From Elusimicrobiota bacterium (lineage in GTDB: Bacteria > Elusimicrobiota > Endomicrobiia > CG1-02-37-114 > XYA2-FULL-39-19), in NCBI GenBank assembly GCA_018816525.1, contig JAHIVV010000012.1, forward strand, positions 2,253 to 66,252: a stretch of DNA of 64,000 bases, given 5' to 3'. Shown in pieces: positions 1,813 through 64,000 of the stretch. The notes below the pieces were generated by a model, which saw only the letters and a list, made by a program, of their open reading frames with translations, made no database searches and was not told the DNA's origin. The translations under genes and the position numbers were made by a program. Position 1 is the stretch's first letter; each line of letters begins with the position of its first letter.

Positions 1813-2802
1813 ATGGAAGAAGGAATCAGGGAAATCAATGAGAAAGTAAAAAAAGAAAGCATGTTTATCCAGGAACTTACCGCGGAAATCGGCAAGGTAA
1901 TCGTAGGGCAGGACTATATCATTGAAAGACTGCTTATAGGGCTTTTAGGAAACGGCCATATTTTAATTGAAGGCGTGCCCGGGCTGGCAAAAACCCTGCT
2001 GATTAAAACTCTTTCGGACTGCGTCCAGACAAAATTCCAAAGAATCCAGTTTACCCCGGACCTTTTGCCTGCAGATATAATAGGAACGCTTATTTTTAAC
2101 CAAAAAAGCGGCGAGTTTACGGTTAAGAAAGGCCCTATATTTGCAAATATAATTCTCGCTGACGAAATCAACCGAGCGCCCGCAAAAGTCCAGTCGGCGC
2201 TGCTGGAAGCCATGCAGGAAAGGCAGATTACTATCGGTGAAAATACCTATAAACTGGACGAGCCTTTTCTCGTTCTTGCAACACAGAATCCCATTGAGCA
2301 GGAAGGGACCTATCCTCTGCCGGAAGCGCAGGTAGATAGGTTTATGCTTAAAGCAAAAATAACCTATCCGGATAAAGAGGAAGAACGTAAAATTATGGAC
2401 CGGATGACTGTAGGTACCGTGCCGGAAGCAAAAAAAATAATCAGCCCAAAAGATATTATCAAAGCAAGGGAAGTTGTAAACCAGGTTTATATGGACGACA
2501 AAATTAAAAACTACATCATTGACATAGTTTTTGCCAGCCGCAACCCTGAGAATTATAAGCTTCCTGATTTGAAATCAACCATAGCTTACGGCGCCAGCCC
2601 CAGGGCGACAATTTACCTTACAATCGCCAGCAAAGCTTACGCATTCCTGCACAGCCGCGGGTATGTAACGCCGGATGACGTAAAATCCGTAGCAATGGAT
2701 GTGTTGAGGCACAGAATAATTCTTTCCTACGAAGCAGAAGCTGAAGAACTTACGTCTGAAAATGTCGTAAAACAGATTTTGGATAGCGTAGAAGTTCCTT
2801 AA
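1813..2802 (+). CDS. moxR: MoxR-family AAA+ ATPase
   Basis: Walker A GVPGLAKT, Walker B ILADEINRA. GGAGG SD 5 nt upstream. First gene of the Bat operon. Confidence 0.9.
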   Translation: MEEGIREINEKVKKESMFIQELTAEIGKVIVGQDYIIERLLIGLLGNGHILIEGVPGLAKTLLIKTLSDCVQTKFQRIQFTPDLLPADIIGTLIFNQKSGEFTVKKGPIFANIILADEINRAPAKVQSALLEAMQERQITIGENTYKLDEPFLVLATQNPIEQEGTYPLPEAQVDRFMLKAKITYPDKEEERKIMDRMTVGTVPEAKKIISPKDIIKAREVVNQVYMDDKIKNYIIDIVFASRNPENYKLPDLKSTIAYGASPRATIYLTIASKAYAFLHSRGYVTPDDVKSVAMDVLRHRIILSYEAEAEELTSENVVKQILDSVEVP

Positions 2803-2806
2803 GCCC

Positions 2807-3688
2807 ATGATTCCTAAAGAAATTTTAAAACAGATAAAGCGTATTCAAATACGCACCGGCCGGATGGTAAATGATGTGTTTGCCGGACAGTATAGCAGTG
2901 TATTCAAAGGGCGCGGCATGGAATTCAGCGAAGTCCGCGAGTACCAGCCCGGAGATGAAGTAAGAACTATTGATTGGAACGTTTCCGCGCGTTACGGCAG
3001 GCCTTTTGTAAAGAAATTCACCGAAGAGCGCGAGCTTACCATTATGCTATTGGTGGATATGAGCCGTTCCGAGAAATTCGGCACGAAAGATAAAACAAAA
3101 GAAGAAATAGCCGCGGAAATAGCGTCCGTGCTGGCGTTTTCTGCCGTAAAAAATAATGACAAAGTCGGTATGATAATTTTTACCGATAAGATAGAAAAAT
3201 ACATCCCTCCTAAAAAAACAATTACACACATTTTAAGAATAATAAGCGAAATCCTTTATTATAAACCAGAAAACACCGGCACCGATATTACCGTGGCGCT
3301 GGAATACCTTTGCCGGGTCCAGAAAAAAAGAGCTACCGTGTTTATTATTTCGGATTTCATTGATCCGAAAGGTTATGCCCATGCGCTGAGGGTTGCGGGC
3401 AGAAAACATGACCTGGTTGCAATAACACTCACTGATAAAAGGGAAGAAAACATCCCTGCCGGTTATTTCTATGAACTTACAGACGGCGAAACAGGGCAGC
3501 GGGTTGTGATTGATGCAAGAAACCAGGATAAAGTAAATGAATTTATTGAGCTTGCAAGGCAAGAAAGGGTGAAAAAAGAACAGTTGTTTAAGAAATCAAA
3601 AATTGACTTTATCCCGATAAGTACGGACAAACCCTATGCGGATCCATTGTTAAAATTTTTCTATATGCGTGAAAGAAGGTTTAGGTAA
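2807..3688 (+). CDS. DUF58 (VWA-like) protein
   Basis: Conserved QYSSVFKGRGMEFSEVREYQPGDEVRTIDW motif typical of DUF58 proteins encoded next to moxR. Confidence 0.85.
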   Translation: MIPKEILKQIKRIQIRTGRMVNDVFAGQYSSVFKGRGMEFSEVREYQPGDEVRTIDWNVSARYGRPFVKKFTEERELTIMLLVDMSRSEKFGTKDKTKEEIAAEIASVLAFSAVKNNDKVGMIIFTDKIEKYIPPKKTITHILRIISEILYYKPENTGTDITVALEYLCRVQKKRATVFIISDFIDPKGYAHALRVAGRKHDLVAITLTDKREENIPAGYFYELTDGETGQRVVIDARNQDKVNEFIELARQERVKKEQLFKKSKIDFIPISTDKPYADPLLKFFYMRERRFR

Positions 3689-3703
3689 TCAGCTGACTGG
3701 GTT

Positions 3704-4630
3704 ATGAATAAAATTGTCTTTAAAATCATATTGTTGTTGTCATTGAGTTCGAACCTTTATTCAAGTGAAGTTCCAATCAATGTTTTAGCCGGAGCGGATA
3801 AAAAAGAAATTACTCTCGGCGATACTTTTGAATATGTTCTTAATCTAGAATACCCGAAAGATTATAAGTTTAACCTGCCTGATTTCACTTCAATTTTCAA
3901 CGGTTTTGAAATACGCAAGCAAACCAACATTGCCCCCAGGTCCCGGGGATGGTTGTTTGGCACGAAACATTATGAGGTGCAATTCAAATTTGAACTGACT
4001 AATTTTAATATCGGTGATCAAATGATCAGCTCATTTACTGTTACATTTGCCGGCCCTTCCGGCGAAATAAAAGAAAGTGTCGTTCCTGAAACAATAGTAA
4101 AAGTAACCCCTGTAAAAGAAAACGCGCAGGATGTGCAGGATATCCGCGATATAAAACCGCCGTTATCGATAGGAATTAATACACTCCTTTTGTTTGTTAT
4201 AATCATTTTTATTCTGGTAGGAGCATATTTATACTTTTTAATGCGTAAAAAAGAAGGGCCTGCTGTTGAAGGACAGGTTATTGAAGAACAGAGGTTATCT
4301 CCTGAAGAGCTTGCTAATAAACGGCTTGATGAACTGCTTGCAAAAAATCTCATAAAAGAAGGCCCTTTGGGGATAAAGCAATTTTATATTGAATTATCCG
4401 ACATCATAAGAAGGTACATTTCAGAAAAATACGGTGTTCCCGTAATCGAGAGGACCACGGATGAGGTTTGCCGCGATTTGAAAAAATCAGGGCAAGCGGA
4501 TAAAAAATCCCAGATAGAAATAAAGGAATTCCTTGAGAACTGCGATATGGTAAAGTTTGCTAAATACATCCCCCTGGACAACGAAATAAACGGCGATGTG
4601 GAAAAAGGAAGAGAGATAATAAAAATATGA
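3704..4630 (+). CDS. hypothetical membrane protein of the Bat operon
   Basis: Signal peptide plus an internal TM segment (LLLFVIIIFILVGAYLYFLM). Position matches the conserved hypothetical TM gene between DUF58 and batA in Bat operons. Confidence 0.5.
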   Translation: MNKIVFKIILLLSLSSNLYSSEVPINVLAGADKKEITLGDTFEYVLNLEYPKDYKFNLPDFTSIFNGFEIRKQTNIAPRSRGWLFGTKHYEVQFKFELTNFNIGDQMISSFTVTFAGPSGEIKESVVPETIVKVTPVKENAQDVQDIRDIKPPLSIGINTLLLFVIIIFILVGAYLYFLMRKKEGPAVEGQVIEEQRLSPEELANKRLDELLAKNLIKEGPLGIKQFYIELSDIIRRYISEKYGVPVIERTTDEVCRDLKKSGQADKKSQIEIKEFLENCDMVKFAKYIPLDNEINGDVEKGREIIKI

Positions 4631-5610
4631 GGTTTGCAAATCCGGTATTATTGCTGTTTTTATTGTTAATTCCGGCAGTTGTGTGGTATTTTGTAAAAAA
4701 ACACAAGTCGTCATCTATTCTATACCCCAATATAGGGCTGTTAAGTAAAGTATTTCCTGTAGATAATCAAAGAAACAAAATTTTGCTGATTATGCGCATG
4801 TGTGCGCTTGTTCTTTTAATTCTTGCTTTCGCGCGGCCTCAAAAGGGTTTGGTAACCAGTGAATCCAGCACAAAAGGCATAGACATAATGCTTTGCATAG
4901 ACACTTCATCAACCATGCAGGCGCTGGATTTTCAGCCGAAAAACCGCCTGGAAGTCGCAAAAGAGACCGCAAAAGATTTTATTAAAGCAAGAAAGCATGA
5001 CAGGATAGGCATAGTTGTTTTTAGCGGGCTGAGTTTTACCCAATGCCCGCTCACTCTTGACCATGATGCGTTGTTTGAATTTTTGGATAAAGTCCAGATT
5101 GGCATCGCGCAGATGGACGGCACAGCCATTGGGTCGGCTATAATGACCTGCATAAGCCGCCTTAAAGACAGCACAGGAAAAAGCAAGGTTGTAATATTGC
5201 TCAGCGACGGCAGGAATAATATGGGCGAAGTGGACCCGATAACTGCCAGCAAGGCAGCGCAATCTGTTGATATAAAAATTTATACCATCGGCATAGGCGT
5301 TCCCGGCAAAGCCTTGTTTCCCGTACAGGATCCCATGTTCGGATTGCAATATGTGTATATTCCGGAGGAACTTGATGAAGGCATGATGACAAATATAGCT
5401 GAAATTACCGGCGGTAAATATTTCCGCGCCAAAACTTACGGTGGTTTTAAGGATATTTTCAAGCAGATAGACAAGCTCGAAAAATCAGAAATTAAAACTG
5501 ACCAGTACACGGAATACGGTGAATTATACCGTTTCTTTCTTTTGCCGGCGTTTTTGCTGATATTGGCCGAGATAATTTTGGCCAAGACTATTTTTAGGAA
5601 AATACCATGA
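4627..5610 (+). CDS. batA: VWA-domain protein BatA
   Basis: N-terminal TM segments, VWA fold with MIDAS-type DTSSTM motif, C-terminal TM. Confidence 0.8.
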   Translation: MRFANPVLLLFLLLIPAVVWYFVKKHKSSSILYPNIGLLSKVFPVDNQRNKILLIMRMCALVLLILAFARPQKGLVTSESSTKGIDIMLCIDTSSTMQALDFQPKNRLEVAKETAKDFIKARKHDRIGIVVFSGLSFTQCPLTLDHDALFEFLDKVQIGIAQMDGTAIGSAIMTCISRLKDSTGKSKVVILLSDGRNNMGEVDPITASKAAQSVDIKIYTIGIGVPGKALFPVQDPMFGLQYVYIPEELDEGMMTNIAEITGGKYFRAKTYGGFKDIFKQIDKLEKSEIKTDQYTEYGELYRFFLLPAFLLILAEIILAKTIFRKIP

Positions 5611-6623
5611 ACTTTGACGCGAGGTTTTATTTATACTTGGCGGTTTTTGTCATTCCCGCAGTGCTGGCAGGGATGGCTTATTTGACAAGGAAATACAGGA
5701 ACGAGCTCAAAAGCTTCAGCGACGAGAAAATGTACCCTGTTTTATTTGATGTACAGGTTTTCAAAGCAAGGAAAACGAAAAACATTCTGCTGGTTCTCGT
5801 TATTTTCTTTTTGCTTTTAACTCTTGCCGGGCCGCGGTTCGGCACAAAACTTGTCAATATAAAAAGGAAATCAATTGATATAATTATTGCGCTTGACTGC
5901 TCAAAGAGCATGCTTGCCGAAGATATCCTGCCAAATAGAATGTCAAAGGTTAAAGATTTGTTTTCGATATTGATAGACAGGCTTAAAGAGAACAGGATAG
6001 GCGTGCTAGCGTTCAGCGGGGTCGCCTTTACCCAGTGCCCGCTTACTTATGATAACAATGCCGCAAAAATGCTTCTTGGGATGATTGATACAAACCTGAT
6101 TCCTTTTCCGGGGACATCCCTGGGTTCTGCCATAAAGCTTGCAACAAAAAGTTTCGGGGAAGACAAATATTCAAATAAAGTTCTTGTCCTGCTGACTGAC
6201 GGTGAGGACCATAAAAGCGATCCTCTGGATGCCGCGCAGGAAGCCAGGGATTATGGAATAAGGATTTTTACTGTAGGTATCGGCACTACCCGGGGCGAAG
6301 TTATCCCGATGAAGGATGAAAATGGGAATACTTTTGAATATAAAAGAAACAAAAAGGGCGAGGTTGTCGCCAGTAAACTTGACGAAAATACTCTTATGCA
6401 GATTGCCCAGGCGACGGACGGTAAATATTATTCGCTTTCCTATGCCGATACCGGCGTGGTGGAACAGCTGTTGGATGATTTAAACAATATAGAGAAAAAG
6501 GAAACAAAAAGCGGTGTGTATAATTTGTATGAACATAGGTTCCAGTACACCCTGCTGATTGCGATTGTTTTGTTGCTGATAGAAATGTTTATCCCGGAAA
6601 TAAAAAAACAAACCCCCACGTGA
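5607..6623 (+). CDS. batB: VWA-domain protein BatB
   Basis: Paralogous to the preceding gene. DCSKSM MIDAS motif, N- and C-terminal TM segments. Confidence 0.8.
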   Translation: MNFDARFYLYLAVFVIPAVLAGMAYLTRKYRNELKSFSDEKMYPVLFDVQVFKARKTKNILLVLVIFFLLLTLAGPRFGTKLVNIKRKSIDIIIALDCSKSMLAEDILPNRMSKVKDLFSILIDRLKENRIGVLAFSGVAFTQCPLTYDNNAAKMLLGMIDTNLIPFPGTSLGSAIKLATKSFGEDKYSNKVLVLLTDGEDHKSDPLDAAQEARDYGIRIFTVGIGTTRGEVIPMKDENGNTFEYKRNKKGEVVASKLDENTLMQIAQATDGKYYSLSYADTGVVEQLLDDLNNIEKKETKSGVYNLYEHRFQYTLLIAIVLLLIEMFIPEIKKQTPT

Positions 6624-6633
6624 ACTCTCCCTG

Positions 6634-6692
6634 CCTCTCTTTCACAAAGAGAGGGGACAAGGAGCTCTCTTCCCCTCTTTTTGAAAGAGGGG
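6634..6692 (+). promoter_or_regulatory. two tandem perfect palindromic hairpins between batB and batC
   Basis: cctctctttcacaaagagagg (6634-6654) and cccctctttttgaaagagggg (6672-6692), each a 9-bp stem with a 3-nt loop, sitting just upstream of the batC SD. Confidence 0.4.
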
Positions 6693-6713
6693 ATTTAGGG
6701 GAGTTAATAAAAT

Positions 6714-7412
6714 ATGAATAAATTAACCCTGACTTCTGTTTTAATTATTTTGAACTGCAGTATTATATTCGCCGGCGCTGGCAGCAGCGTGAACAAAGGG
6801 AATAAATTTTTTAGAAACAATCAGTTTAATGAAGCTCTTTCAGCCTATCAGAATGCCCAGATAAACGATCCCAGCTCACCAATAGTCAATTACAACATGG
6901 GAGATGCTTTATATAAGCTTGGCAGTTATGAAGATGCGCTGACCGAGTATAATAAAGCCCTCAAAATTAAGGACAAGAAAACTAAAAGCAAAATTTACTA
7001 CAATATAGGCAATACAATGTACCGCCTCCAGAAAAAAGACGAGGCGATTGCAAATTATAAGAAAACTTTGGAATTAAATTCTAAAGATGAAGATGCGAAG
7101 TATAACCTGCAATACCTTTTACAGGAGATGAAACAGCAAAAACAACAAAACAAGGACGGTAAAGACAACAAGGACAATAAAGACAAACAGAAACAACAGC
7201 AGGATCAGAAAAACCAGCAAAACAAACAGGATCAACAGAAACAGCAGCAGAAGCAGGCAGGGGAGAAGAAAGAAGAAAAGAAGAAGAAGTATATGTCAAA
7301 GGAAGATGTTGAGCGGCTTTTGCAGATGTCGAGAGAGCAGGAGAAGGAAGCGATGAAGAAGAAGATGAAGCAGGCGGCGCCGCAGCTTCCAAAACCCGAC
7401 GAAGACTGGTGA
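6714..7412 (+). CDS. batC: TPR-repeat protein BatC with K/Q-rich low-complexity tail
   Basis: Signal/TM N-terminus, TPR-like repeats (YYNMGDALYKLGSYEDALTEYNKALKI...), then a QQKQQNKD low-complexity region. Confidence 0.65.
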   Translation: MNKLTLTSVLIILNCSIIFAGAGSSVNKGNKFFRNNQFNEALSAYQNAQINDPSSPIVNYNMGDALYKLGSYEDALTEYNKALKIKDKKTKSKIYYNIGNTMYRLQKKDEAIANYKKTLELNSKDEDAKYNLQYLLQEMKQQKQQNKDGKDNKDNKDKQKQQQDQKNQQNKQDQQKQQQKQAGEKKEEKKKKYMSKEDVERLLQMSREQEKEAMKKKMKQAAPQLPKPDEDW

Positions 7413-7478
7413 AGACTGGTAAAGCGTGCTTGAGAAATCAGTTTTTTCACTCCCTTAGGTTTTTTTACGTTTAAAGTT

Positions 7479-9275
7479 ATGAAAAAGATTCTAATACTAA
7501 TAGCCATATTAGTTTTTGCATTTATTCAGGGTGCATATGCCCAGAATGTTAATATATCCGCTTCATTTGACAGGAATAGCGCCGCAGTCGGCGAGCAGAT
7601 TACGATGCAGATTTCGGTTTCCGGTGATACAAACGATATCCCCGAACCGAAGCTTCCGGGTATTCCGGATTTCAATGTATATTCTTCAGGAAGAAGCCAG
7701 AGCGTTTCAATTGTTAACGGAAAGATGTCTTCTTCCATTGCTTATAATTACGTTTTAAGCCCTACCAAGCCGGGTAAATTCACTATCGGTTCAGCAACCC
7801 TTGTTTATAAAGGACAGACCTATTCAACCCAGCCTGTAGAGATTACGGTTACTGCATCGCCACAGGCGGCTCCTGCGCAATTGCCTGCAGCTTCAGCGCA
7901 AAACCCGTCAGCGAGCCAGGCACAGCCTGCCGCAGCTTCAAGAGAACTTTTTGTTGAATCTTCGGTTGATAAAAAAACCGCGTATGTTAATGAGCAGATA
8001 ACTCTCAGTTTCAAATTTTTTCACCGGGTAAGCCTTCTTTCACAGCCTCAATACTCTCCGTCCGATACAACAGGTTTTCTCACGGAAGATTTGCCGCCGC
8101 AGAAAAATTACTATACCGATATTAACGGCCAGCGTTACCTTATTACAGAAGTAAAGACTGCTCTATTTGCTACATCAAAAGGCAGGTATACGGTTGGTTC
8201 GGCTCAGTTGAGATGTACAGTCAATGATAATGGGCAAGGCGGCGAAGATATTTTTAACCAGTTTTTCGGCGGGGGCAAGACGATAGTTTTGAAAAGCGAT
8301 CCAATTACTGTTGACGTAATTGATTTGCCGTCACAAAACAAACCTCAAAGTTTCACCGGGGCTGTAGGCAAGTTCAATATTTCAGCCAGCCTGGACAAAA
8401 GCCAGACAGAAACCAACCAACCAATTACTCTCAATGTGAAAATAAGCGGAAACGGGAGTATTAAAACAATTACTGAGCCTAAAGCGTCATTTCAGAATTT
8501 TAGAAAGTATGACACTATAACGTCGCTTAATATCGAAAAGCCAAATTATATAGTTTCCGGTTCGAAAGTTTTCAAAATTGTGCTTATGCCGCTGATTGCC
8601 GGCAATGTTACAATCCCGCCGGTAGAATTTACTTATTTTGACCTTGCGGAAAAAAACTACAAAACTATAAATACTCCAAGTTTAAGCGTTTCTGTCAAAC
8701 CCGGAACTTCTGCTCCGCCTCCTATGCCCGCGCTTTCTTCCGGCCAGGGAACCCAGGTGCTGTCGCAGGATATAAGGTATATTAAAACAAAATTATCCGG
8801 CGCGTTATCCTCTGCGCCTATTTATAAAAGCACTTTTTTATTTGCGTTGCAGTTTATTCCGGGTATTTTCTTTTTAATCTTCTGGAGATACAATACTTAC
8901 AGGCAAAACCTTTATAAGAATACCGGCCTCGTAAGGTTTACATTTGCTTATAAATCCGCGCTAAAGAAATTAAAAAAACTTAATCTTGAAATAGCCGCAT
9001 TGACGCCTGATAAAGTTTCCTCGCGGATATTCGATATATTATGTTCCTATCTGGCTGATAAATTTAATGTTTCTGCCTGCGGTATCATTTCAGAAGAGGT
9101 TAGGAAAAAACTGCAGGAGAAAAATGTAAACCCTGATGCTGTAGCAAAGATAGTAATTTTGTGGGAAGAATTGCAGTTTGTCCAGTATGCGCCTGCGCAG
9201 GCAACGCAGGATAAAGTCAACGAATTGCTGAATAATACAACTATAGTCCTGAAAGAACTGGAAAAAGAATTATGA
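7479..9275 (+). CDS. batD: BatD-like protein
   Basis: 598 aa with signal peptide, large periplasmic beta-rich region, TM segment and cytoplasmic tail. Position after batC. Confidence 0.6.
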   Translation: MKKILILIAILVFAFIQGAYAQNVNISASFDRNSAAVGEQITMQISVSGDTNDIPEPKLPGIPDFNVYSSGRSQSVSIVNGKMSSSIAYNYVLSPTKPGKFTIGSATLVYKGQTYSTQPVEITVTASPQAAPAQLPAASAQNPSASQAQPAAASRELFVESSVDKKTAYVNEQITLSFKFFHRVSLLSQPQYSPSDTTGFLTEDLPPQKNYYTDINGQRYLITEVKTALFATSKGRYTVGSAQLRCTVNDNGQGGEDIFNQFFGGGKTIVLKSDPITVDVIDLPSQNKPQSFTGAVGKFNISASLDKSQTETNQPITLNVKISGNGSIKTITEPKASFQNFRKYDTITSLNIEKPNYIVSGSKVFKIVLMPLIAGNVTIPPVEFTYFDLAEKNYKTINTPSLSVSVKPGTSAPPPMPALSSGQGTQVLSQDIRYIKTKLSGALSSAPIYKSTFLFALQFIPGIFFLIFWRYNTYRQNLYKNTGLVRFTFAYKSALKKLKKLNLEIAALTPDKVSSRIFDILCSYLADKFNVSACGIISEEVRKKLQEKNVNPDAVAKIVILWEELQFVQYAPAQATQDKVNELLNNTTIVLKELEKEL

Positions 9276-10039
9276 TAAAAAAACTTATATTTGTTATTTC
9301 TGTGCTCTTGTTGTCCTATCTAACTGCTTTTTCGGCAGAGGATATCTCAAAAGCCGTGAATGATTTATTTGTTCAGGCAAATAAGGCTTATGAACAGAAC
9401 AACTATGACCAGGCCATAGCTTTATACGAAAATGCGCTGGGCCGGTACAAAATCAACAATGACTCAATCTACTACAACCTGGGCAATTGCTATTACAGGA
9501 CCAATAAAATAGGCAAAGCTGTTCTGAACTATGAGCTTGCGCTGAAAATCAATCCGCGGGATGAAGATGCCAGGTATAACCTTAATTATATCAGGACGCT
9601 TATAAAAGATATCCAGGATACAAATTTCATTGACAAATTATATCTCCTGCTGACCGCAAATGAATTAGTCCTGATTACTTTATTCGTCAACATTTGTTTC
9701 TTTATATTTCTTTGGTTATTTGTGCATAAGAAGAATCCGGCATTAAAGCCTTATTGTTTATATATAGGAATTGCATTATTGGTGCTAGGTTTTTGGGCTT
9801 ATAATAGGGTAAAGGATGAAAAGAGAGTTTTTGCTGTTGTGATTACAACCCCCTGCGAAGTCCGCAGCGGCCCCGGCAAGGAATATACCGCGGGTTTGTC
9901 TGTCCAGGAAGGCAAGAAAGTTGAAATTTTAAGCCGGCAGGAAGATTGGTTTGCAGCCGGCCTTCATACCGAGAAATACAAAGGCTGGCTGGAAAAAGAA
10001 AAGGTAGAGCTGATCCTGTCAAGCCCTTTAAAAAGGTAA
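9272..10039 (+). CDS. batE: BatE-like TPR/SH3 domain protein
   Basis: TPR repeats, TM segments, C-terminal SH3b-like region (EDWFAAGLHTEKYKGWLEKE). Confidence 0.6.
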   Translation: MIKKLIFVISVLLLSYLTAFSAEDISKAVNDLFVQANKAYEQNNYDQAIALYENALGRYKINNDSIYYNLGNCYYRTNKIGKAVLNYELALKINPRDEDARYNLNYIRTLIKDIQDTNFIDKLYLLLTANELVLITLFVNICFFIFLWLFVHKKNPALKPYCLYIGIALLVLGFWAYNRVKDEKRVFAVVITTPCEVRSGPGKEYTAGLSVQEGKKVEILSRQEDWFAAGLHTEKYKGWLEKEKVELILSSPLKR

Positions 10040-46098: not shown

Positions 46099-46233
46099 AT
46101 GGGAGAGCAAGGTGGCGTTGTTGAGGTTTTAAAGTATTTTTTTAAGGAAGAAAAAAATATCAAGGGTTTTGTAATAAAAAAGAATAAAACCAAAAAAGAA
46201 GTAATTAAAACTTATAAGCTAGGCGGGAACTAG
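46099..46233 (+). CDS. small ORF (44 aa) with good SD, function unknown
   Basis: AAAGGAG 8 nt upstream of the ATG. Product MGEQGGVVEVLKYFFKEEKNIKGFVIKKNKTKKEVIKTYKLGGN. Below the ORF-track size cutoff. Confidence 0.25.
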   Translation: MGEQGGVVEVLKYFFKEEKNIKGFVIKKNKTKKEVIKTYKLGGN

Positions 46234-46393
46234 TTATGTCGAATTACAAAACATTCCGAACAGCGGAGATTCTGATTATGAATGGAATCTTAAAAACAAA
46301 GTTGGAGAAAAAGTTGTCAGCGGGGTTTATGTATATATAGTTTCAAATAGTCAAAAAGAAAAGAAAATGGGAAAGTTGGCAATATTGAAATAA
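46223..46393 (+). pseudogene. remnant of a T9SS-type C-terminal sorting domain (por_Secre_tail-like)
   Basis: Open frame without a start codon reads ...YVELQNIPNSGDSDYEWNLKNKVGEKVVSGVYVYIVSNSQKEKKMGKLAILK*. It matches the CTD ends (LxQNyPNPF ... WdgxNxxGxxVaSGVYFYrL ... KxvLLK) but the middle beta-strands are missing. Confidence 0.4.
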
Positions 46394-59484: not shown

Positions 59485-60051
59485 TTAGAATGATACTTTT
59501 GGAACTGTTTTAGCAACTTCTTCCGCTTTAAAGTAAGCATCCTTCTTTTGGAAGCCGCCCATAGAAGCAACTATATTGCTTGGAAAACGCTGAACTAAAA
59601 TATTGTAAATCCGGACAACTTCATTGTATCTTTGTCTTTCAACGGAAATCCTGTTTTCAGTTCCTTCAAGAGAGTCCTGCAATCTGATGAAATTCTCGTT
59701 TGCCTTTAATTGAGGATAATTTTCCGCAATCATTAGCAGGCGGGAAACCGCGCTGTCCAGTTCGCCGGTAGCTTTTACTTTGTCATTGGTTGTTTTTGCG
59801 CCGATTAATTTTGCCCTGGCTTCTGCAACGCGCGTGAATATTTCATTTTCATGTTTTGCATAGCCTTTTACCGTGTTTATCAGGTTCGGTATAAGGTCAA
59901 GCCTTCTCTGGTACTGGTTTTCTACCTGGGCCCAGGATGCGTTGATGCTTTCGTTAAGCGTTACAAACTTATTAAAATAAGAAGCGTACATCCCGCCGAC
60001 AATTACTACAACGCCTACAATCACTCCTAAAACAATCCACACTTGTTTCAT
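59485..60051 (-). CDS. lemA: LemA family protein
   Basis: N-terminal TM plus conserved LemA helical region (AQVENQYQRRLDLIPNLINTVKGYAKHE). Confidence 0.85.
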   Translation of the reverse strand: MKQVWIVLGVIVGVVVIVGGMYASYFNKFVTLNESINASWAQVENQYQRRLDLIPNLINTVKGYAKHENEIFTRVAEARAKLIGAKTTNDKVKATGELDSAVSRLLMIAENYPQLKANENFIRLQDSLEGTENRISVERQRYNEVVRIYNILVQRFPSNIVASMGGFQKKDAYFKAEEVAKTVPKVSF

Positions 60052-60102
60052 TTTATCCTCCAGTATTTTTGAGTCGGACGAAACCCTGAAAATCCTTTCA
60101 AA

Positions 60103-60816
60103 TTATTTTCGGGGTACCATAAAACTACCTACAAAATCAATAACTTTTTCAATCTCATTTAAATAAGAGTTGAACAAAACTTCTATCTCAACTTTTTGTG
60201 CCGCCTTGTCGCCTTCCTTAATTTTAGAAACAGTTATAAAAGGTTCAGTATTAATTCTTACCTGCTTGGATAACATGCTTAAAGCGTCAATTTTTTTCGG
60301 CGGCGGTACCTGGCCGGTTAAGCGTAGGACATTCCTGAAAAGAACAAGAAAAGTTGAAATTGAGTTTATCAACAATTCTTTGATTTCTGATTGTTTGCCT
60401 TTAGTTGCCATAAACTCTTGGCAAAGTTTGAGGTATTTGCTTTTAAGCTCGTGTTCGCACTCATGGCGCAGGTTTGAAGAAACAATTTCCATGTTAACAA
60501 AGGGGTTTTCGCCGTAAAGGATTTTGTGATGCTCTTTCATATCGAGGAATTCTATGGGAAAAACGTCAAATGATTCCTCGAATTGATTGCAGGTAAAGAT
60601 GACTGGTACAGAATTATTGCTTTTTATCCACTTGTTCACAGGTTTTTGAAGTAATTTTAGTTCAGTAAATCCAAAATTTTCCAATGTAAGCAGTAAATTA
60701 TAGTCAGAACGTTTTTTTACCGCCTCTCCGCTTGCCTGGGACCCGTAAAGTACTATTGATTTTAGGTTTGAACCCAGTGTGTTTTTTAGTTCTTCAACAA
60801 ATTTTGTAAGTTCCAT
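60103..60816 (-). CDS. nucleotidyltransferase-fold protein (minimal NTase with GS...D motif plus helical C-terminal domain)
   Basis: IVLYGSQASGEAVKKRSDYNLLL resembles the Pol-beta NTase hG[GS]x9-13Dh[DE]h motif with the second acidic residue replaced by N. Likely start is ATG 60814-60816 (SD AAAGAGGTG 4 nt upstream), not the TTG at 60837 used by the track. Confidence 0.4.
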   Translation of the reverse strand: MELTKFVEELKNTLGSNLKSIVLYGSQASGEAVKKRSDYNLLLTLENFGFTELKLLQKPVNKWIKSNNSVPVIFTCNQFEESFDVFPIEFLDMKEHHKILYGENPFVNMEIVSSNLRHECEHELKSKYLKLCQEFMATKGKQSEIKELLINSISTFLVLFRNVLRLTGQVPPPKKIDALSMLSKQVRINTEPFITVSKIKEGDKAAQKVEIEVLFNSYLNEIEKVIDFVGSFMVPRK

Positions 60817-60829
60817 TGTCACCTCTTTC

Positions 60830-60866
60830 ATACCCAATGCCAGTCGCTTGGAAGACTATTGGGTAT
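60830..60866 (-). promoter_or_regulatory. conserved SD-adjacent hairpin element, copy C (intercistronic, TPM to NTase gene)
   Basis: mRNA sense ATACCCAAT-AGTCTTCCAAGCGACT-GGC-ATTGGGTAT followed by GAAAGAGGTGACAATG. Confidence 0.5.
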
Positions 60867-60884
60867 ATTTTCCCCTCCATGTTT

Positions 60885-61670
60885 TTACCAGCCTCTCGAT
60901 GCTCCACCGCCACCGCTTGAGCCTCCGCCGAATCCTCCCCAGCCGCCTCCTCCGCCGAATCCTCCGCCACCGCCTCTTCCTCCGGAAAATAGCACGTTAA
61001 GCAGCAGGAAAAAAAACAGCCCAGGGTGAAAAATCATCAGGTAAAGCAGGATAAGAAATATTATTGCGATAAAAATAATGTTTGCTAAACCTAATTTGAG
61101 CGGGGGATAACTATTTTGAGCAAGAGTTGGGATTGCGGTGTTTTCAGGTATTAAACCGTTACTAAGATCAACATTGTATTCTTTTGCTACTAGCAAGGCT
61201 ATTCCGTAAACGCCTCCCAATATTCCTTGTCCGGTATCACCCTGTTTAAAGAAGGGAATAACAGCCTTGTCCAGGATTTCACCGCAGAGCCCATCCGGTA
61301 AAGCTCCTTCCAGCCCGTAACCAACTTCAATGCGCAATTTCCGGTCTTCTGACGCTATAAGGAAAAGAATGCCGTTATTTTTATCTTTCTTCCCTATTTT
61401 CCACTTTTCAAATAATTTTACGGAATAGTCTTCAATAGCGAGGCCGTTAAGATTTTTAACCGTTACTACCGCAACTTCTGCGGAAGTTTTTTGTTCGATT
61501 TCGGCCGCAATTTTATTGATTTGTAATTGTGTTTCAGAAGGTATTATCTGGGCGAAATCGGATACCCAGCCCTGCGGGCGGGGTGTATCTAAAACGCAGC
61601 TTTGTGGGAAAGCTGAAGCTGTTAAAGATAATAAAAATGTATAAGCCAACAAATATTTTCTCATTCGCAC
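60885..61670 (-). CDS. TPM-domain (DUF477, YgcG-like) protein with Gly-rich C-terminal tail
   Basis: Signal peptide, TPM phosphatase-like domain, TM segment, GGRGGGGGFGGGGGWGGFGGG tail. Confidence 0.8.
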   Translation of the reverse strand: MRMRKYLLAYTFLLSLTASAFPQSCVLDTPRPQGWVSDFAQIIPSETQLQINKIAAEIEQKTSAEVAVVTVKNLNGLAIEDYSVKLFEKWKIGKKDKNNGILFLIASEDRKLRIEVGYGLEGALPDGLCGEILDKAVIPFFKQGDTGQGILGGVYGIALLVAKEYNVDLSNGLIPENTAIPTLAQNSYPPLKLGLANIIFIAIIFLILLYLMIFHPGLFFFLLLNVLFSGGRGGGGGFGGGGGWGGFGGGSSGGGGASRGW

Positions 61671-61752: not shown

Positions 61753-61781
61753 TTGACTTTTTTGAAAAGCCATACTATACT
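61753..61781 (+). promoter_or_regulatory. sigma70-type promoter upstream of the riboswitch-like leader
   Basis: TTGACT (61753-61758), 17-nt spacer, TATACT (61776-61781). Confidence 0.45.
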
Positions 61782-61874: not shown

Positions 61875-62001
61875 AGATCCGAAATGGCAAATCCCATGAA
61901 AATGGGAGACGCAAAGTTACAGGACTAAAGGTAAATGATTTAGAATCAGACCTATGCTCGCCGGACTGTCGAGAATGCTGGAAGCGCTTTCCTTTTAAAT
62001 T
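61875..62001 (+). ncRNA. candidate c-di-GMP class I (GEMM) riboswitch with terminator-like expression platform
   Basis: GGCAAA (61885-61890); hairpin TCCCAT-GAAA-ATGGGA with GNRA tetraloop (61891-61906); near-invariant GACGCAAAG (61907-61915). Tetraloop-receptor-like CUAAAG ... CUAUG downstream, then GGAAGCGCTTTCC stem (61979-61991) plus TTTTAAATTT. Confidence 0.55.
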
Positions 62002-62107
62002 TCTGTTGACAAACCTAATAAAACAGACTATATACGTATTAGGAGTGTTATAGGCGGAAGGGAGAGAAAAGCACTAGAAGGAACTATTAGGAGAATAGGT
62101 AATTTTT

Positions 62108-64000
62108 ATGAAAACCAGAATTTTTATTTTGCTGGTACAGTTATTTCTTTTCTGCGCGCAGGTTTCAGGCAGGGTGGGTGATGTGCAGATGAAGAGTGAC
62201 CATTCGTGGTATCCCGGCGAATTGGCTTGTTCTACCTTTGACCGTCTTTTTGCTTTTCAGTCACAAATATACACGAGGACAACAGGAAGAACAACAGTGT
62301 CTGACCAGGATAAGGCGGTGGCTTCCTGGTTTTTCAGAAACATATATTACTATCACGCTTTTGAAGGTCACGAGGACCTGGGTTATACTACTGTTGGCGC
62401 CACTCCCCATTTTAATGATGATTACTGGAAAGGGCTTTTTGCTTATGGACACGGTGAATGCGCGCCAGGCCATAACCAGATGACTGCAGAAATGGAATAT
62501 AAATTAGGCCACTGCAGGGCCAGGCAAACCGCAGTTGGTGGACACTCGTCTTTTGAGGTATGGTTAACAGGCACGGGTTATGGTTCAGGCAACTGGGCAG
62601 TAATGAATTGTGATCAGGGCACCGTTGTTTTTGATACGTCCACTTATACTTATATGCTTGGTCTGCACAAAGTTGTTTATGAAGATCAACAAAGTAGCGG
62701 TACTAATTACAATAATTATTCAAAGTATTCCTCTAATGCAGCGCCCAATGCAAATCAAGGTTGGTATAAAAACAGTATGTCAAGTTGGTACAGTATCAAT
62801 TTTGTAGGATATTGCAGTGGCTACCCGAGCGTTCCTCCGGTGGTAGAGTTAAGAAGCGGTGAGAAATTAAGGAGGTATCTTAAACCTGGTTTAGCTGATG
62901 GCAACACATATGTTTTTTTTGGTTATAATCAAGTATTGGCTGGCGTGGGTAGGGGGCCTGTCAGGGATGCCACCTGGTGCAACCAGCCGGATAAGATGTA
63001 CAGGGCAACTTCCGGTACTGGCAGTGATTATTCAAGAGGAATATATGGTAACGGTGTTTATACATATACTCCAAATTTTTCTGATGATTCTTACAAAGAA
63101 GGGGTAATCAGCGAAGATACAGGTTCTGTAACTTTTTATTTTTGCACGCCGTATGTTATCGGAGGGAGGCCTGCGCTGGCACGCAGGAATCAAAACGATA
63201 GCGGTGATTTATATCCATTTATGGTTGATTATGCAGGCGCCACGGAAGGTTTAGTAATTACAGGCAGCACTGTTGGTTGCACTGTCCAGGTTTCTTCTGA
63301 CAATGGAAATAGCTGGGCCTCAGCCCAGACCCTTTCAAATAGTTTGGATTTAACAGATTATGTAAAAGGCAACCACTCATATTTTTTGCGGTTTAACACA
63401 GCCGCTAATAACTTAAAAAGTAAAAATCTTACAATAAAGACCGTTACCCAGTGTAACGAGCGGCTAATACCGCATCTAAAGGACAATGGTTCAACGCTTA
63501 CATACCAGGCGTCGGGTAAAGCGGTTTTTAATGCTGGTCCTGGCAGGAAGCAGGCGCAGAAATATATAATCAGCGGCGGTTTTAACACTTCAGGAATAAC
63601 CATGGAAATTCCTACGCCGCACGGAGAAAAGATACTTGAAGTCTATGCTTCTGCGCTGGTAGGGTCAGGGGTTCCACCAAACACCTCTTGTATTTATAAA
63701 ATAGATTATTCCGTAAACAATGGTACGAGCTGGGAGTCAATAGTTGACAACTGGCAGATAGTTCGCAGAGGTTGGGAACCGAGTGATTTTCTATCAACCA
63801 GTTTTTACTATGGTAATAAAGATATTTCATCTAAAAATGCCGATAGTGTCAGAGTCCGGTTTTCTAATAATGGAGAAAGGGAATACAAGAGAGCGGAAGT
63901 ATATCTTGTTTATGAAAGCGCAGTGAATTCTCCTCTGTCAGTGAGATTTAATTATACTGACACTACAGGTAATCATACTGCAGAGAATACCTATCCTGCA
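62108..64000 (+). CDS. large secreted Gly/Tyr/Asn/Ser/Thr-rich protein, 3' end beyond the window (not in ORF track)
   Basis: Continuous open frame from ATG 62108 to the window end (>630 codons, translated by hand with no stop). Signal peptide MKTRIFILLVQLFLFCAQVSG. SD TAGGAGAATAGG upstream. Aromatic/Gly-rich beta-type composition. Confidence 0.7.
   Translation, partial: MKTRIFILLVQLFLFCAQVSGRVGDVQMKSDHSWYPGELACSTFDRLFAFQSQIYTRTTGRTTVSDQDKAVASWFFRNIYYYHAFEGHEDLGYTTVGATPHFNDDYWKGLFAYGHGECAPGHNQMTAEMEYKLGHCRARQTAVGGHSSFEVWLTGTGYGSGNWAVMNCDQGTVVFDTSTYTYMLGLHKVVYEDQQSSGTNYNNYSKYSSNAAPNANQGWYKNSMSSWYSINFVGYCSGYPSVPPVVELRSGEKLRRYLKPGLADGNTYVFFGYNQVLAGVGRGPVRDATWCNQPDKMYRATSGTGSDYSRGIYGNGVYTYTPNFSDDSYKEGVISEDTGSVTFYFCTPYVIGGRPALARRNQNDSGDLYPFMVDYAGATEGLVITGSTVGCTVQVSSDNGNSWASAQTLSNSLDLTDYVKGNHSYFLRFNTAANNLKSKNLTIKTVTQCNERLIPHLKDNGSTLTYQASGKAVFNAGPGRKQAQKYIISGGFNTSGITMEIPTPHGEKILEVYASALVGSGVPPNTSCIYKIDYSVNNGTSWESIVDNWQIVRRGWEPSDFLSTSFYYGNKDISSKNADSVRVRFSNNGEREYKRAEVYLVYESAVNSPLSVRFNYTDTTGNHTAENTYPA

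Follow-up and report, generated by a model that had tools for sequence, protein, structure and literature searches.

The 64-kb window (the whole stretch of 64,000 nucleotides analysed here) ends within a gene whose product we predict, with moderate confidence, to be a surface-displayed cysteine hydrolase or transferase regulated by c-di-GMP. The gene lies behind a c-di-GMP-I riboswitch aptamer; an almost identical allele on another contig provides the part that the window cuts off, including a T9SS-type C-terminal domain (CTD). The open frame, the aptamer, the full-length architecture with its CTD, the family and its distribution, and the conservation of individual residues were observed directly, and the enzymatic assignment is built on them through a predicted structural model.

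The gene at the window end and its full-length allele

The frame from 62108 to 64000 (+ strand) translates over 631 codons with zero stops. Given the base composition of the window, the chance of such a stop-free run is ∼5e-19, and the GC content of the frame (0.43; GC3 0.38) is in line with that of the other window genes. This open frame is a genuine gene, of which the window holds the promoter-proximal 56%. Its first features, and the two ORFs that overlap it, are:

62108-64000, + strand: 5' part of the gene (631 codons of a 1130-codon gene; the window end cuts the remainder)
62108-62170, + strand: Sec signal peptide, residues 1-21, predicted cleavage VSG/RVGD, read from the sequence
62196-62483, + strand: spurious ORF overlapping the real frame
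63358-63603, − strand: spurious ORF overlapping the real frame

A sequence-only reading of the same DNA had reported an uninterrupted frame of more than 630 codons missing from the ORF list, and had supposed that this list covers closed ORFs only. The frame length agrees with ours, and the supposition matches the lister's own description: ORFs running off the source are omitted, hence the absence of the gene, and the only two ORFs listed for this stretch are both spurious. The richness in Gly, Tyr, Asn, Ser, Thr and Trp claimed at that time is also borne out by the measured make-up of the 631-codon product (G 9.8%, S 9.5%, T 8.1%, Y 7.4%, N 7.0% and W 1.9%).

The protein N-terminus is MKTRIFILLVQLFLFCAQVSG, followed by RVGD, with the predicted cleavage between the two. 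In this segment a basic n-region precedes a hydrophobic core, and the cleavage site has small residues, as is usual in Sec signal peptides; the homologues have the same kind of start, a conserved mature N-terminus, (V/A)GDPQ..DHxWYPGEL, following right after their own signal peptides. The signal peptide proposed earlier is therefore supported. A lipoprotein signal was considered and rejected, as the L-F-L-F ahead of Cys16 does not fit a lipobox.

The architecture beyond the window end was taken from an allele of the gene. The best database match of the window protein is P0001 (99% identity), a partial protein of 787 aa from an Elusimicrobiota MAG. Of the other copies in its 90% cluster, four are partial as well and one, P0125 (1130 aa), is complete. 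Four of the five named members of this cluster come from MAGs that their depositors labelled Elusimicrobiota or Elusimicrobia, and one 149-aa fragment falls in a bin labelled 'Bacteroidota' by its depositor; no close relatives of P0001 were found in the metagenome scan. Contig L085, which bears P0125, aligns without indels to the final 11,893 bases of the window at 99.94% DNA identity, and the same riboswitch is present on it. P0125 comprises the signal peptide, a ∼640-aa conserved core extending to residue ∼660, four FN3 domains (four fn3 stretches, 77 bits in Pfam) and a TIGR04183 C-terminal domain. The FN3 domains, which lie beyond the window, are the sole repeats in the protein; no true internal sequence repeats were found in the window-encoded part.

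The TIGR04183 match covers residues 1052-1126 of 1130 and scores 39.5 bits for a cutoff of 23; against PF18962 the score is 27.1 bits for a cutoff of 27. The tail, which ends in ...GKLAVIK, is thus above both curated cutoffs and is, by score, a TIGR04183 member. Such a domain had been predicted to lie beyond the window, and was indeed found in the 99.94% identical contig. A CTD remnant had also been proposed within the window at 46223-46393, and the comparison with P0125 corroborates it: this position holds a 56-codon open stretch with stops ahead of it, whose final 26 residues share 50% identity with the P0125 sorting domain (E 5e-10). Searched alone, the stretch gives a sub-threshold Pfam CHU_C match (17 bits versus 27). 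The 85-aa CTD returned no matches when used as sole query in the homologue search.

The T9SS has been described in Bacteroidota and the FCB group, and we know of no T9SS described in Elusimicrobiota; the labels given to the source MAGs by their depositors place the host outside Bacteroidota/FCB. Like type-A T9SS cargo of Bacteroidota, the full-length protein has a signal peptide in front of its functional domain(s), followed by Ig/FN3-like spacers and, at the C-terminus, a β-sandwich tail of ∼75 aa; unlike that cargo, it is encoded in MAGs labelled Elusimicrobiota, with no T9SS component in the DNA available. Neither T9SS genes nor c-di-GMP-turnover genes were found among the ∼40 scanned or pre-annotated genes of the window, which are housekeeping genes (IleRS, YidC, MnmE, PFK, a Bat/MoxR operon, TolB-like, Lgt and lipid A acyltransferase). 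A literature search for work tying Elusimicrobia to c-di-GMP riboswitches or T9SS found nothing relevant.

The c-di-GMP riboswitch leader

Three elements were annotated upstream of the gene:

61753-61781, + strand: promoter-like site TTGACT-17-TATACT (consensus scan, 10 of 12 matches)
61876-61973, + strand: c-di-GMP-I aptamer (RF01051), full length (cmscan)
61974-62107, + strand: expression platform and remaining 5' UTR, with a purine-rich SD-like sequence

The leader, previously described as GEMM-like, contains a real c-di-GMP-I aptamer. The cmscan match to RF01051 scores 61.4 bits for a gathering score of 35 (E 1.4e-9) and covers model positions 1-87 of 87. The aptamer displays a GAAA tetraloop hairpin (CCCAU-GAAA-AUGGG) and a receptor-like stem (CUAAAGG...CCUAUG). 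Judged by this match, the identity of the aptamer is certain, and it is the sole structured RNA that the Rfam scan detected in the 64 kb. Gene and aptamer share a strand, and the 135 nt from the end of the aptamer to the ATG at 62108 contain no ORF; the genes upstream of the aptamer are on the opposite strand, the aptamer being divergent from that operon. The promoter-like site, σ70-like in sequence, is located ∼95 nt upstream of the aptamer and is weak, as 4 such sites were seen for 2.2 expected in shuffles.

SD-like elements are present at 62089-62093 (AGGAG) and 62097-62099 (AGG). A terminator scan of the leader found no intrinsic terminator after the aptamer: the sole hairpin with a U-run, GGAAGCGCUUUCC + UUUUAAAUUU (∼61980-62002), reaches only -2.6 kcal/mol, and an expression platform of the intrinsic-terminator type was rejected. 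In the MFE fold, nucleotides 61971-61981 pair with codons 4-7 (∼62115-62125) and the RBS is enclosed, with a z-score of only -1.9. Because the leader lacks a proper terminator, its sequence makes control at translation initiation or mRNA stability more likely than control at termination. The same aptamer is present in the near-identical contigs L001 and L085, and its position is the same across three assemblies. None of the 28 other homologue loci scanned, the three closest included, has a riboswitch. As the riboswitch is thus restricted to three near-identical contigs, the expression platform has no comparative or covariation support.

Comparable arrangements exist in Firmicutes. The C. difficile genes for ZmpI/PPEP-1, CD2831 and pilA1 encode secreted or surface proteins controlled by c-di-GMP riboswitches, and one of the riboswitch-controlled genes of this species encodes a secreted protease that cuts adhesins. 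In B. thuringiensis, the Cap gene behind Bc2 encodes an exported, surface-directed protein, and its 5' UTR likewise contains a class-I c-di-GMP aptamer (PMC4933901). Rho-independent terminators are described for Bc1 and Bc2 (PMC11218506), whereas the expression platform described here has none. The present system also differs from those of Firmicutes by its diderm Elusimicrobiota host, its T9SS-type CTD in place of a sortase LPXTG signal, and its unrelated protein family.

The core family, its predicted fold and candidate active site

Homologues of the core are numerous (>150 at 40–49% identity), mostly 635-650 aa in length, and all annotated as 'hypothetical'. A one-genome-per-species scan yielded 276 core loci, overwhelmingly in Planctomycetota and Verrucomicrobiota, with Armatimonadota and Sumerlaeia as minor hosts; Zavarzinella formosa is the single cultured host noted among them. 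The family is compact, as an exhaustive profile search of 1.84 billion representatives with the N-domain retrieved no more than 258 clusters at E<=1e-3. Most members are secreted proteins of ∼640 aa that lack both stalk and anchor, and some of the distant full-length relatives (22–29% identity) bear Ig, MBG or CHB_HEX_C tails. As none of the 28 other homologue loci scanned has the riboswitch, we conclude that this leader, the FN3 stalk and the CTD were added to the core in the Elusimicrobiota lineage alone.

Profile searches did not assign the core to a known enzyme family. The window protein has no match to a catalytic or transglutaminase-like family in Pfam and NCBIfam; Pfam found no transglutaminase-like match in 45 homologues at E<=0.1, and no catalytic domain in 10 distant relatives. 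Aligning the N-domain with a PNGase core profile in hhalign gave nothing; for this profile the human sequence was verified against PDB 2f4m and 1x3w, and the mouse and yeast sequences were taken from the same output. Cyclin C, retrieved in a PDB profile search, was discarded as chance matches only. When the ORFs of 84 loci were clustered, no gene neighbour proved to be conserved: those that recurred (DUF1501, DUF1559, PSCyt2/PSD1 and an ABC ATPase) were dismissed as merely abundant planctomycete paralogues. At individual loci, the close homologue P0002 is flanked by GH2 and GH35 genes, and another close homologue is located behind an AraC regulator.

The fold was approached with an AlphaFold2 model of the core built from 45 homologues, which is confident for residues 30-660 (pTM 0.79, most blocks >90). 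The features placed on this model are:

62171-63232, + strand: predicted transglutaminase/papain-like fold domain, residues ∼22-375, approximate boundaries
62459-62461, + strand: Cys118 codon, proposed nucleophile, first residue of helix 118-133 (conservation and AlphaFold2 model)
62543-62545, + strand: His146 codon in the motif G-H-S-S-F-E-V-W, proposed general base, start of strand 146-155 (conservation)
62612-62614, + strand: Asp169 codon in the motif W163-x5-D, proposed third triad member, just past strand 159-167 (conservation)
63233-64000, + strand: predicted β-sandwich (jelly-roll) region, reaching residue ∼660 in the full protein
63293-63316, + strand: Asp-box SSDNGNSW
63710-63733, + strand: Asp-box SVNNGTSW

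The model suggests that the N-terminal ∼350 aa of the core probably adopt a transglutaminase/papain fold. None of the 45 homologues varies at C118, H146 or D169, nor at H122, Q124, E128, R139, E150 or W163, and the candidate core string reads GHGEC118...R139...GGH146SSFE150VW...W163AVMNCD169. In the model, a helix begins with Cys118, His146 opens the next-but-one strand and Asp169 comes just after the following strand; this predicted order of secondary structures is the canonical one of the transglutaminase fold. At the sequence level, the motif C-x20-R-x6-G-H-x3-E-V-W...W-x5-D resembles what we take to be the Transglut_core (PF01841) signature, G-x-C...R...H-x-W-x-E-V...W-x3-D.

In an alignment of 15 sequences that includes distant relatives, Cys118 is invariant in all, and His83, Glu150 and Trp163 are likewise invariant throughout. 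An Asp replaces His146 in 4 of the 11 distant relatives, and an Asp is always present at position 167 or 169, alternating between the two. Cys118 is therefore the likely nucleophile, and we are less sure of His146 as the general base: with His146 replaced in some relatives and His83 invariant, the base may be mis-assigned, or the wider family may be partly non-catalytic.

Several points distinguish the core from the Transglut_core superfamily (PF01841; PNGase, TG2/TG3/factor XIII, protein-glutaminase, PeiW and arylamine N-acetyltransferases), for which every HMM or profile test failed here: (i) a long N-terminal helical extension with an invariant DHxWYPGEL, (ii) a large insert at residues ∼170-310, and (iii) two fused Asp-box jelly rolls within the conserved core. 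The full-length AlphaFold2 model also matched LapG/BTLCP (4fgo), with which the window protein has no sequence-level relationship; a domain-only model, for which 16 truncated sequences were used, was of low quality (pLDDT 48) and served only as support for this match. LapG, a transglutaminase-like protease that c-di-GMP controls by way of LapD, is a ∼200-aa, single-domain, periplasmic enzyme regulated post-translationally by a protein, whereas the present protein is a multidomain one of 1130 aa, predicted from its sequence to be CTD-sorted and controlled by an RNA switch. By analogy, LapG and the riboswitch-controlled surface proteins of Firmicutes may be considered its nearest functional counterparts.

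In structure comparisons the sandwiches resemble CBMs, reelin and neuropilin. CBM matches were many, and the best Foldseek matches were reelin repeats (E 8e-7). Pfam Reelin_subrepeat-B and BNR matches occur in most family members, the window protein itself being sub-threshold (19 bits versus 27). With reelin subrepeat B and other Asp-box jelly rolls the core shares SxDxGxTW-type Asp-boxes, two in number, in predicted sandwiches; this likeness lies in a common fold and a common motif, and a shared function does not follow from it. The CBM-like matches, for their part, reflect generic jelly-roll similarity.

These data modify the initial description of the product as a β-rich surface protein of the adhesin type. 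Within the core, the β-rich character holds only for the C-terminal half, with its Asp-box jelly rolls, and not for the N-terminal ∼350 aa, which are transglutaminase-like in the model; the four FN3 domains are modules of the surface-display kind. The adhesin-type repeat protein suggested at first is not what we find: the part inside the window is a conserved core that occurs once, without internal repeats, and neither the window protein nor the full-length allele matches an adhesin family in Pfam or NCBIfam. A surface-displayed, probably enzymatic protein of transglutaminase fold, belonging to an unannotated family, is a better label.

Proposed mechanism, alternative readings and significance

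The mechanism that we infer, in which fold (taken from a predicted model), catalysis, substrate, switch polarity and secretion route are all predictions, would start from a single-gene unit whose leader RNA reads the c-di-GMP level and sets protein output. The 1130-aa precursor would cross the inner membrane by Sec, owing to its signal peptide, and the T9SS type-A CTD would guide it across the outer membrane, probably anchoring it on the surface, where the four FN3 domains may form a stalk keeping the core off the surface. The Cys118-His146-Asp169 domain would then form a thiol acyl-enzyme with its substrate, either an extracellular protein or a peptide-linked compound, and act as a peptidase, isopeptidase, amidase or transglutaminase, and the two Asp-box jelly-roll sandwiches, packed against the enzyme domain, would bind the substrate. 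Several observations count against this overall picture: the searches gave no HMM or profile-profile match to transglutaminase-like families, no conserved neighbours hint at a substrate, there are no T9SS genes in the window and no described T9SS that we know of in the phylum, and the riboswitch is restricted to one species-level lineage.

Part of the evidence would suit a non-catalytic surface adhesin or binding protein, in which the transglutaminase-like domain is a scaffold or pseudo-enzyme and the sandwiches and FN3 domains mediate attachment, under c-di-GMP control, to a surface or polymer. The protein does have FN3 repeats and a CTD, the sandwiches are like those of CBMs, reelin and neuropilin, His146 is lost in some distant relatives, and adhesins are frequent targets of c-di-GMP riboswitches, as exemplified by the B. 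thuringiensis collagen adhesin (PMC4933901). However, Cys118 is invariant even at 22–29% identity, and the invariance of H122, Q124, E128, R139, H146, E150 and D169 in the 45-member family has the pattern of an active site. As most of the family consists of ∼640-aa secreted proteins without stalk or anchor, and as adhesin families gave zero matches, we consider an adhesin unlikely. An enzyme acting on another class of substrate is a sub-case of the cysteine hydrolase or transferase that we favour: a glycoconjugate amidase or lectin-like glycan-processing enzyme, PNGase-like, would cut a glycan-peptide or glycan-amide bond, with the sandwiches as carbohydrate-binding modules. Planctomycetota and Verrucomicrobiota are glycan degraders, which makes such an activity conceivable in the main hosts of the family, and the numerous CBM matches and the position of P0002 between GH2 and GH35 genes agree with it. 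Yet the CBM likeness is that of generic jelly rolls, no match to the PNGase core emerged from the profile-profile comparison, and glycoside-hydrolase neighbours occur at one locus only, no neighbourhood being conserved across the 84 loci; we consider this substrate class unlikely, slightly more so than an adhesin.

The remaining alternative concerns the RNA: the aptamer might not regulate the ORF at all, being a relic or controlling, for instance, a small RNA, with the ORF expressed constitutively. Neither a terminator nor a clear SD-sequestering helix is recognisable, the z-score of the leader fold is only -1.9, and the riboswitch is missing at homologue loci outside the lineage, all of which speak for this alternative. 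On the other hand, the aptamer is high-scoring and full length, it lies 135 nt upstream on the same strand with no ORF between and is divergent from the upstream operon, its position is kept in three assemblies, and this layout is the usual one for riboswitches that act in cis. We therefore regard a non-regulating aptamer as very improbable.

Returning to the c-di-GMP-regulated surface enzyme, the riboswitch, the CTD, the FN3 domains and the transglutaminase fold are of already known kinds, and the enzymatic function is a prediction; what is new is the core family, the domain combination and the RNA control in Elusimicrobiota. None of these findings overturns current understanding. A more specific proposal, which we put forward as speculative and rather doubtful, is that the ∼640-aa core constitutes a new family of secreted transglutaminase-fold cysteine enzymes, captured by one Elusimicrobiota lineage, fused there to an FN3 stalk and a T9SS-type tail, and wired to a c-di-GMP riboswitch. 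c-di-GMP signals cells to pass between an attached and a free-living state; if the proposal is true, the gene would be an RNA-controlled counterpart of the surface-remodelling protease logic of LapG and ZmpI, and CTD-dependent sorting would operate in a phylum outside the FCB group. The combination of a c-di-GMP riboswitch and a T9SS-type tail on one Elusimicrobiota gene provides a concrete cargo for CTD sorting outside Bacteroidota/FCB. For the family, which is invisible to Pfam and NCBIfam and has 276 loci in species-representative genomes of PVC bacteria and their neighbours, these data offer a first functional handle: its active site is probably that of a thiol enzyme, and in one lineage its regulation is linked to c-di-GMP.

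Assembly breaks at the secreted-protein gene

The gene that begins at window position 62108 (+) lies at an assembly break in every one of the five public assemblies of the species (L001, L085, P0121-P0125), the break falling within the gene or just past it. The incomplete copies encode 710, 728, 740 and 787 aa, and the sole complete copy, P0125, stops 4 nt short of its contig end. The assemblies probably break here because of the near-identical FN3 repeats of the gene. A 149-aa fragment of the C-terminal sorting domain (CTD), P0124, sits in a MAG labelled 'Bacteroidota', a placement that is probably due to mis-binning.

Candidate expression platform and other gene groups in the window

In the minimum-energy fold, positions 61971-61981 (+), directly 3' of the c-di-GMP-I aptamer, pair with 62115-62125 (ORF codons 4-7), and this pairing closes a long imperfect hairpin around the entire ribosome-binding region. 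The z-score of the fold is -1.9, which is statistically weak; the predicted hairpin could be the expression platform of the riboswitch. Immediately upstream of the riboswitch promoter region lies a divergently transcribed trio, the central ORF of which (60103-60837, -) is without a Pfam family. A complete Bat/MoxR-type operon is also present in the window.

Gene groups and ORFs
59485-61670 (-): LemA, unannotated 244-aa ORF and TPM_phosphatase
1813-10039 (+): Bat/MoxR-type operon, comprising a MoxR AAA_3 ATPase, DUF58, two BatA/VWA proteins, BatD and a TPR protein
3704-4630 (+): unannotated 308-aa ORF in this operon

Homologues and their catalytic residues

Among the homologue loci, L004, L011, L013, L016, L034, L042, L060 and L063 all hold the planctomycete-type gene of this family and come from MAGs whose label is 'uncultured Alcaligenaceae', 'Klebsiella sp.' or 'Akkermansia sp.'. 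Such naming seems unreliable, since the neighbours on the contigs are typical planctomycete paralogues (e.g., DUF1501, DUF1559). The neighbours of P0002 and P0004, the closest homologues outside Elusimicrobiota, are suggestive: P0002 (L084) is flanked by a GH2 glycosidase gene on one side and GH35 on the other, and an AraC-family regulator gene lies directly upstream of P0004 (L083). P0003 and P0004 carry PKD domains in place of the FN3 domains and CTD.

In the A4 alignment, which adds distant relatives, P0205, P0233, P0235 and P0252 form a distant subfamily (22-26% identity) in which the His146 position is occupied by Asp, within the motif G-D-[TS]-x-x-E, while Cys118, His83, Glu150 and Trp163 are retained. 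Judging from this pattern, either these four proteins would be pseudo-enzymes or the catalytic base of the family would differ from that expected from the transglutaminase template.

A sorting-tail remnant elsewhere in the window

The remnant of a T9SS-type tail is flanked by genes for an M23 peptidase and for TatD.

46223-46393 (+): sorting-tail remnant of 56 codons, preceded by in-frame stops and ending in ...VVSGVYVYIVSNSQKEKKMGKLAILK and a stop

Over 26 aligned aa, the remnant is 50% identical to the CTD of the full-length protein P0125. This resemblance suggests that several CTD cargo genes are, or formerly were, present in the genome.
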